Below, piece after piece: positions 27,724 through 29,019 of a DNA stretch of 32,000 bases (position 1 is the stretch's first letter; the number at the start of each line of letters is the position of its first letter). Under the pieces are notes generated by a model that was given only the letters and a program-made list of their open reading frames with translations, did no database searches and had not been told where the DNA came from. This DNA comes from Candidatus Thorarchaeota archaeon (GTDB lineage Archaea > Asgardarchaeota > Heimdallarchaeia > Hodarchaeales > Hodarchaeaceae), in assembly GCA_048882505.1 (NCBI GenBank), contig JBHLRO010000010.1:1-32000 (forward strand), given 5' to 3'. Both the position numbers and the translations under genes were made by a program.

Positions 27724-27930
27724 CTAATAATCTTCTTCTTGTTGCCTTTTCAGTTTTATCTGATGGGTTAAATAACCCGCAACGCGATTTCTAAATCGCT
27801 TTGAACGTGTTTTTGCAACCTTCGAGACAATGTCCTTATTGTGGTCAAAGTCCAACGTGAGGTGCGCCTCGTATTCCTTCATAATCTGGCGAGTGATTAT
27901 CTTGACAGCGCTCGTTCGAACTTTTCCCGT
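27724..27930 (-). CDS. rps17e: 30S ribosomal protein eS17, apparent ACG start (not in ORF track)
   Basis: Hand translation gives (M)GKVRTSAVKIITRQIMKEYEAHLTLDFDHNKDIVSKVAKTRSKRFRNRVAGYLTHQIKLKRQQEEDY*, with the eS17 motifs GKVRT, DFxxNK and SKRxRNRxAGYxT. Confidence 0.93.
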   Translation of the reverse strand, partial: TGKVRTSAVKIITRQIMKEYEAHLTLDFDHNKDIVSKVAKTRSKRFRNRVAGYLTHQIKLKRQQEEDY

Positions 27931-28034
27931 TGTTATAACACTCCATTTATTTCAAAGTGTAAGGAGTAGACGGTTCATTGGTGTTTACTCCCAGCTAGAA
28001 GACCCATTCTCTTATTTTTTAAATATACCACCCG

Positions 28035-28346
28035 CTAAGGCGGAAGGTTATGCGGATCAATGATAAGATTGAACTTTTCCGTAAAAGACTCATGATGGAC
28101 AGATAATTCCACCTCGGTTTTCGTCTCTGGAATTCGGACAACCCAGTTAACAAGAAACTCATTCCCGTCCCCAAGGTCGGGAAGAGCAATCACACTTTCT
28201 TGATTGGGGGCGAATTCCAAATCACCATGAATCCGAAATTCTAAATCTTTTAATGGAGCAAACTCCAATGGTTGTCTGATTACCCATACGACGATCAATC
28301 GATTATCAAAAAATCTTTCCAAGGTCGGTGGTGAAAATCGAGGCAC
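28035..28346 (-). CDS. Small uncharacterised beta-rich (Ig-like?) protein
   Basis: GTG start 7 nt after the upstream stop, with GAGG upstream. Alternating hydrophobic strands, LPDLGDGNEFLVNWVVR. Confidence 0.55.
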   Translation of the reverse strand: MPRFSPPTLERFFDNRLIVVWVIRQPLEFAPLKDLEFRIHGDLEFAPNQESVIALPDLGDGNEFLVNWVVRIPETKTEVELSVHHESFTEKFNLIIDPHNLPP

Positions 28347-28353
28347 GATAGGT

Positions 28354-29019
28354 CTATCCTCGGGTAAAGCTTGGAAAGAAAAGTGTGCCCTCCCGAGAAT
28401 TTATGATACATATCTTGTTTTGAGCCAGAAGTTCGATCAAATAATCGACCTTCGAGGTATCCCAGGGAACACGTTGGTATATTTCGTTTATTAAGATTTC
28501 ACCATAGGTGCTGATTCCCTCGTTTATCCACGCCAAAAAAGTATGGACATCTCTTGATAAGGTGAGCGGTTCGAATAAGAATCCCTGCTTAGATTTTCCG
28601 ATGATTCCCTGCTCATTCAGCATTTCAAGAGCAGCCTCTATGTCTTGGATATCCACCTCCCATCCAGGGTGATGTTTATGAAATGAAGATGTCAATCTAC
28701 TTAGACGAACGGGTTCCAGATTGACTCGTTGGTGGGCTAGCCCGTACGGGATTATTTCGGATGCTAAACGGTGGAAAAACTGTTCTCGTCCTAAAAAACG
28801 AGGCGTTTTGAACATTGATGCAGGCAATACAGAAACAGGGAGACCTACCTCACGTTTTAAGGTAAGTAGATAATTTCTCATATCATCTGGAAGATTCACT
28901 GGAATTTTGTTGGAATTTGCGCCCTCCCTCAACTTTTTCTCCGCATAGCGAATGCTCTCATCTTTCTGCTCTTTTAATTTTTTCCCTAATGCCTTAAAAC
29001 GGTCCCGGACGTCGTTCAT
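28354..29019 (-). CDS. ESCRT-II Vps22/Vps36-like (EAP30) protein
   Basis: N-terminal helix, then FFHRLASEII, VDIQDIEAALEML, PLTLSRD, GEILINEI..VPWD..KVDYLIELL..FFPSF. This follows the tandem winged-helix pattern of Vps22. Confidence 0.75.
   Translation of the reverse strand: MNDVRDRFKALGKKLKEQKDESIRYAEKKLREGANSNKIPVNLPDDMRNYLLTLKREVGLPVSVLPASMFKTPRFLGREQFFHRLASEIIPYGLAHQRVNLEPVRLSRLTSSFHKHHPGWEVDIQDIEAALEMLNEQGIIGKSKQGFLFEPLTLSRDVHTFLAWINEGISTYGEILINEIYQRVPWDTSKVDYLIELLAQNKICIINSREGTLFFPSFTRG

Follow-up and report, generated by a model that had tools for sequence, protein, structure and literature searches.

A probable ACG start codon in the single-copy gene for ribosomal protein eS17 of a Hodarchaeales archaeon

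Introduction

Archaeal translation is usually described as starting at AUG, GUG or UUG. The gene for ribosomal protein eS17 found in the window, by which we mean the whole stretch of 32,000 nucleotides that was analyzed (positions 1 to 32,000 of contig JBHLRO010000010.1, assembly GCA_048882505.1, Candidatus Thorarchaeota archaeon), has none of the three at its initiator position, and the question is where, and by what means, its synthesis begins. The original prediction, made from the letters of the DNA, proposed noncanonical initiation at ACG or at an ATA slightly upstream, thought it possibly regulatory, and named a consensus error as the main alternative. Hodarchaeales are often placed next to eukaryotes, and an ACG start in an essential single-copy gene of this order would bear on the evolution of start-codon stringency.

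Results and discussion

The gene lies on the minus strand at 27724..27930 and, read from an ACG at 27928..27930, comprises 68 codons followed by a TAG stop codon (27724-27726); the product is as long (68 residues) as those of the closest homologues (P0002-P0004). It matches the Pfam family PF00833 (Ribosomal_S17e) with an E-value of 3.3e-17 and a score of 63 bits against a curated cut-off of 22.8, and a 25-sequence alignment of the family has ten invariant columns, all of which it retains, in agreement with the predicted intactness of the reading frame. A second intact copy, with this one left untranslated, had been considered, but the gene is the only one in a genome rated 94.6% complete. Upstream, the frame is closed by a TGA at 27952..27954, and the eight sense codons that lead from there to the ACG include no ATG, GTG or TTG. 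The ACG stands directly before the conserved glycine, at the place of the initiator methionine, and is preceded at a distance of 8 nt by a Shine-Dalgarno (SD)-like GGAGTG (27939..27944, minus strand), whose duplex with the 3' end of this genome's 16S rRNA amounts to −6.7 kcal/mol and which is kept in the closest homologues. Scoring of candidate positions with a start-site matrix, for which 279 unambiguous genes of the genome supplied the data, placed the ACG in the 95th percentile. The arrangement of stop, SD and ACG described originally is thus confirmed.

Among the Hodarchaeales MAGs that form the genus compared here, the ACG of this genome (G000) is shared by one other, G016 (JBHLSH010000031.1, Ca. 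Heimdallarchaeota TM2S.58), a separately assembled sister species that also has the same upstream TGA and an identical 40-nt stretch ahead of the ACG; identity across the locus is 87.6% over 3.2 kb. The two eS17 genes differ by 6 nt and by only 2 amino acids, both C-terminal, and their first 16 codons are identical. The remaining 19 of the 21 genus members have ATG at this start, and in the three closest homologues, which come from metagenomes, are 76-81% identical and likewise have 68 residues, GTG, ATG and ATG occupy exactly the position of the ACG, and the SD and spacer ahead of it are almost the same. A scan of metagenomes found no further ACG members of eS17. Because the ACG pair is nested among the ATG genes of the genus in a quick, poorly resolved tree, the simplest history would be a single T-to-C change in the ancestor of G000 and G016. 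A merely fortuitous likeness to a start site was ruled out by what G016 shares and by the matrix score, and we conclude that the ACG is very probably the true start of eS17, as far as sequence comparison can tell.

Divergence between the two sister species differed from gene to gene. Four-fold degenerate sites had changed at 1 of 26 positions in eS17, 121 of 462 in four large-subunit genes, 5 of 60 in uS15 and 7 of 119 in a GTPase gene; an RNA-level constraint on eS17 was considered on the basis of its low synonymous divergence and was not relied on, because uS15 and the GTPase gene are similarly low. The near-identity of eS17 and its leader (27724-27975, compared with L037) may reflect recombination or uneven rates. 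In the GTG-started homologue (L454:1455-1503), the segment containing the SD and start is tandemly duplicated, as seen on two contigs; the ATG copy, which is not in frame, forms a 6-codon ORF immediately ahead of the GTG.

Near-cognate starts were also sought elsewhere in the genome by a codon-blind test, in which long genes with a poor region upstream of their first canonical start were taken and the best SD-like position was scored. That position coincided with a near-cognate codon (ACG, CTG, ATA, ATC or ATT) in 24 of 51 genes where 6.0 were expected (p 5e-10); CTG accounted for 9 (1.0 expected), and ACG, with 1 (0.6 expected), was not enriched. The genome therefore carries a minor class of predicted SD-led near-cognate starts, mostly CTG. 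In the genes for an Arf-family GTPase, PurP, an isochorismatase, a phosphoglycerate mutase, CcmB and a winged-helix protein, the Pfam domain starts ahead of the first canonical codon. In the isochorismatase gene (G000 C20:29007; L193:143-808), an ACG common to G000 and G016 corresponds to an ATG in G009 and G007. The Arf GTPase gene (G000 C3:140421; L191:222-1166) has CTG in G000, G016 and G007 and TTG in G009 and G001, and its first canonical codon lies 71 codons into the domain, past the P-loop. The CTG codon of PurP is common to G000 and G016. The ACG of a rubredoxin gene (G000 C15:49754; L462), on the other hand, corresponds to ATG in G016 and is either a recent change or an error, which illustrates the need for comparison with the sister genome. 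The uL23 gene of G009 (L187) also lacks a canonical start and has CTG where G000 and G016 have TTG.

The initiation machinery appears ordinary. Among 27 tRNA matches to Rfam RF00005, a set that may be incomplete, the initiator tRNA is standard (A1-U72, anticodon CAT) and the tRNA with a CGT anticodon is an elongator-type threonine paralogue; a variant initiator with a CGU anticodon, considered as a decoder of the ACG, was rejected on these grounds. The reading frame of aIF1 is intact. Both the initiator tRNA and tRNA-Thr(CGT) genes (G000 C11:13193-13294 and C18:80368-80462) contain short introns.

The explanation that we regard as reasonably likely is that the ACG is a tolerated or static, down-tuned start, used by the ordinary initiator tRNA with the help of a strong SD. 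In the ancestor of G000 and G016, the ATG of eS17 would have become ACG while the gene stayed intact and single-copy. Pairing of the SD would position the 30S subunit at the ACG, where the normal Met-tRNAi (anticodon CAU) might accept the codon with one mismatch, and the product would have the usual Met-Gly N-terminus, made less efficiently than from ATG. The codon could work because SD-led initiation in this lineage would tolerate such near-cognate codons in a small fraction of its genes. That eS17 seems to drift to weak codons more often than the other ribosomal protein genes tested is probably due to its own promoter and strong SD, which might give it spare output, a guess on our part, so that a weak start would be neutral or act as static down-tuning. 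Standing against this explanation are the occurrence of the ACG in only two known species, the lack of ACG enrichment in the codon-blind test, and an excess of weak eS17 starts over the control genes larger than plain lineage tolerance predicts, which could mean regulation.

A near-cognate codon (ACG, ATC, ATA or CTG) occupies the methionine position of eS17 in 29 genomes from seven clades of Asgard archaea and Thermoproteota. The 78 class members with an eS17 match comprise 12 with near-cognate starts, 5 with GTG or TTG and 61 with ATG (read in 42 and, in 19, deduced from the profile match at position 1). Two of the 12 are the ACG genes, and the other ten, five with ATC and five with ATA, all belong to one family, f5. 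Further Asgard cases are CTG in four genomes of Freya/Jordarchaeia, three of them ambiguous because of an ATG two codons upstream that abuts the SD, ATA in two genomes of Helarchaeota, and CTG in one additional family. For Thermoproteota, 90 eS17 loci were read in 151 genomes, 60 of the loci having been picked for a non-methionine signal, and the 80 scorable ones divided into 50 TTG, 15 ATG, 5 GTG, 6 CTG and 4 ATA. The six CTG genes belong to a clade including Caldarchaeales; a supposed assignment of the ATA clade to Korarchaeia found no support, its NCBI label being Nitrososphaerota/Bathyarchaeota. Near-cognate eS17 genes have stronger SDs than ATG-started ones (medians of −8.3 and −4.4 kcal/mol, among genomes whose kinship makes them not independent). 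In families f15 and f17 (L067, L078, L081), an extra cysteine separates the methionine from the conserved glycine. A second, divergent eS17 resembling non-Asgard sequences in G105 (L092, C124) and the three copies in G402 are probably products of bin contamination.

In the same 29 genomes, chosen by the feature itself, four other ribosomal protein genes start canonically wherever read: eL37 in 28 of 28, eS8 in 26 of 26 and eS19 in 28 of 28, with uL2 having ATG in 17 of 17. The unselected comparison within the class gave near-cognate starts in 12 of 78 eS17 genes versus 2 of 80 uS15 genes (Fisher p 0.005), a contrast resting mostly on family f5, to which 10 of the 12 cases belong; only read codons were counted for uS15, since it is not Met-anchored in many Thermoproteota, and the class search with eL15 was uninformative, as its profile is not Met-anchored. 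Family f5 has further weak starts. In four of its genomes, uL3 has ATT (in three members of a single genus) or ATA at the methionine position with no canonical codon upstream (G034, G030, G026, G070; L172-L174, L177), and uS15 has ATA in G073 and G074 (L468, L469). These exceptions, together with the excess of eS17 over uS15, point to an effect of lineage, to which an effect particular to the eS17 gene is probably added.

Regulation is the alternative that fares best, although we consider it unlikely on balance: the weak start of eS17 would be a selected regulatory device, in which a leader hairpin or upstream ORF may take part. In its favor, four different near-cognate codons have come to occupy the same position in seven clades, in 19 of the 29 genomes no canonical codon stands between the near-cognate one and the stop upstream of it, the near-cognate label requires 10 changes on the poorly resolved quick tree, at least three of them forced by strong branches, and the control genes keep canonical codons in the same genomes. 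On the other side, ATG is the commonest start in both the class and the genus and none of the weak codons is conserved group-wide, the 29 genomes were selected by the feature, and most class cases come from the family in which uL3 and uS15 are also weak.

The features of the leader fall short of demonstrating a switch. A TATA-box-like element at 28016..28023 (minus strand) is kept in 24 Hodarchaeales leaders, and by the spacing rule for archaeal promoters, transcription would start near 27992, giving a leader of about 60 nt. A tentative hairpin was predicted at 27963..27992 (minus strand), the 3' arm of which is also complementary to the SD. The four closest sequences retain its stem, and the loop diverges among them, but compensatory pairs numbered 0 of 11 and folding z-scores ranged from −0.2 to −1.9; the hairpin was not conserved across the genus, SD-sequestering hairpins in this genome folded no better than shuffles, and the leader region had no match in Rfam. 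The short upstream ORF, at 27952..27978 (minus strand), has 8 codons in the frame of eS17, starting with ATG at 27978 and ending at the TGA. An ATG-started leader ORF is present in all five of the closest sequences, with frames and lengths that differ. The suggestion of regulation in the original prediction is therefore weakened by the near-cognate starts on unrelated genes and the lack of a covarying leader, and is kept alive by the repeated appearance of weak codons in eS17. A wider form of the idea, in which eS17 of Asgard archaea and Thermoproteota has recurrently been selected for a weak start that ties its synthesis to initiation stringency or to the handling of the SD by the small subunit, is to us slightly more doubtful still; if true, archaea would have their own equivalent of IF3/eIF1 feedback, with a ribosomal protein as its carrier.

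Initiation at the ATA (27934..27936, minus strand), which would extend the protein by two residues, or the use of both codons, is improbable. The ATA, a near-cognate codon in the frame of eS17, occurs in the two ACG genomes and is absent from the ATG/GTG relatives; ATA also starts eS17 in other clades, and in the NCBI annotation the genes of both species are called from it, two codons upstream of the ACG, with 70-residue products (P0051, P0001). ACG is not known to be among the starts listed in translation table 11, which would explain that call. The ATA lies, however, only 2 nt from the SD and scored at the 25th percentile, the three closest homologues have CTA or CCA in its place, the exact ancestral position is held by the ACG, and most solved eS17 chains begin with Met-Gly. 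Of the two codons originally proposed, it is thus the ACG that is favored by comparison with relatives and by the site score.

Much less probable is an N-terminus supplied by readthrough of the UGA from the ATG at 27978, by a frameshift from an out-of-frame ATG at 27946, or by C-to-U editing of the mRNA. The in-frame position of the former ATG and a putative tRNA with a UCA anticodon, called by ARAGORN, are compatible with such routes, but the varying frame and length of the leader ORF in the closest homologues, the lack of a conserved N-terminal extension and of an Rfam element nearby argue against them, and none would explain ATA, ATC and CTG in other clades. It is harder still to believe that the gene is dead or gives a 52-residue protein from the first in-frame ATG (27880..27882, codon 17, the sole canonical start in frame), which indeed lies 16 codons past the ACG, as had been noted, has no SD ahead and scored at the 2nd percentile: three residues invariant in the 25-sequence alignment would be lost, and the protein encoded by this single-copy gene differs between the two species only at its C-terminus. 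A single-base consensus error, ATG read as ACG, is likewise very unlikely, despite the unshared ACG of rubredoxin, since a separately assembled second species with 6 differences in the gene and 12% across the locus has the same base.

Initiation at the ACG, the reading preferred here, has partial precedents. Essential, conserved genes of Deinococcus-Thermus, rpsL (uS12) with CTG and Deinococcus dnaA with ATC, were shown by N-terminal proteomics to start at near-cognate codons (PMC2830850), and they resemble eS17 in having such a codon at the homologous methionine position and mis-annotated starts; for them, as for eS17, regulation has been proposed and not shown. They differ in being bacterial and proven, the start of eS17 being read from sequence, and the CTG of rpsL is conserved in its group, whereas eS17 switches among ATG, GTG, TTG, ACG, ATA, ATC and CTG. 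Bacterial infC, another translation gene, starts at ATT or ATA and is autoregulated (PMC2830850); its product IF3 itself controls start-codon stringency, a role that eS17 is not known to have, and its weak codon is widely conserved, while most eS17 genes read are canonical. The structural position of eS17 is near the mRNA exit chamber (PMC7531240). In archaea, GUG and UUG initiation is controlled by aIF1 (PMC4705826, PMC6237735), and CTG starts 5% of the small ORFs of Methanosarcina mazei (PMC11456600); SD-positioned initiation by Met-tRNAi under relaxed stringency would be common to these and to eS17, in which, by contrast, the mismatch falls at the second codon position and in a core ribosomal protein gene. 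The eukaryotic use of ACG, with Met-tRNAi as proposed here for eS17, depends on scanning and reached 0.4-0.5% of AUG in a yeast CYC7 test (PMC4705826), while eS17 has an SD and must supply a ribosomal protein.

Our search of the open-access literature, with most subscription papers outside its scope, found no report of archaeal ACG starts, non-AUG eS17 or near-cognate starts in Asgard archaea. It appears that weak start codons are tolerated, and perhaps exploited, in these archaea to a greater extent than commonly assumed. The eS17 gene offers a natural test sequence for the degree to which an SD compensates for a mismatch at the second codon position under aIF1. Gene prediction programs that accept only three start codons would shorten or overlook eS17 and, in each genome of such lineages, another dozen or two genes at the least, the Arf-family GTPase among them. 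Immediately upstream of eS17, the minus strand at 28035-29019 holds genes for proteins of 221 and 103 residues that match nothing in Pfam and whose position ahead of eS17 is preserved in the closest homologues (L454, L456, L459, L460).
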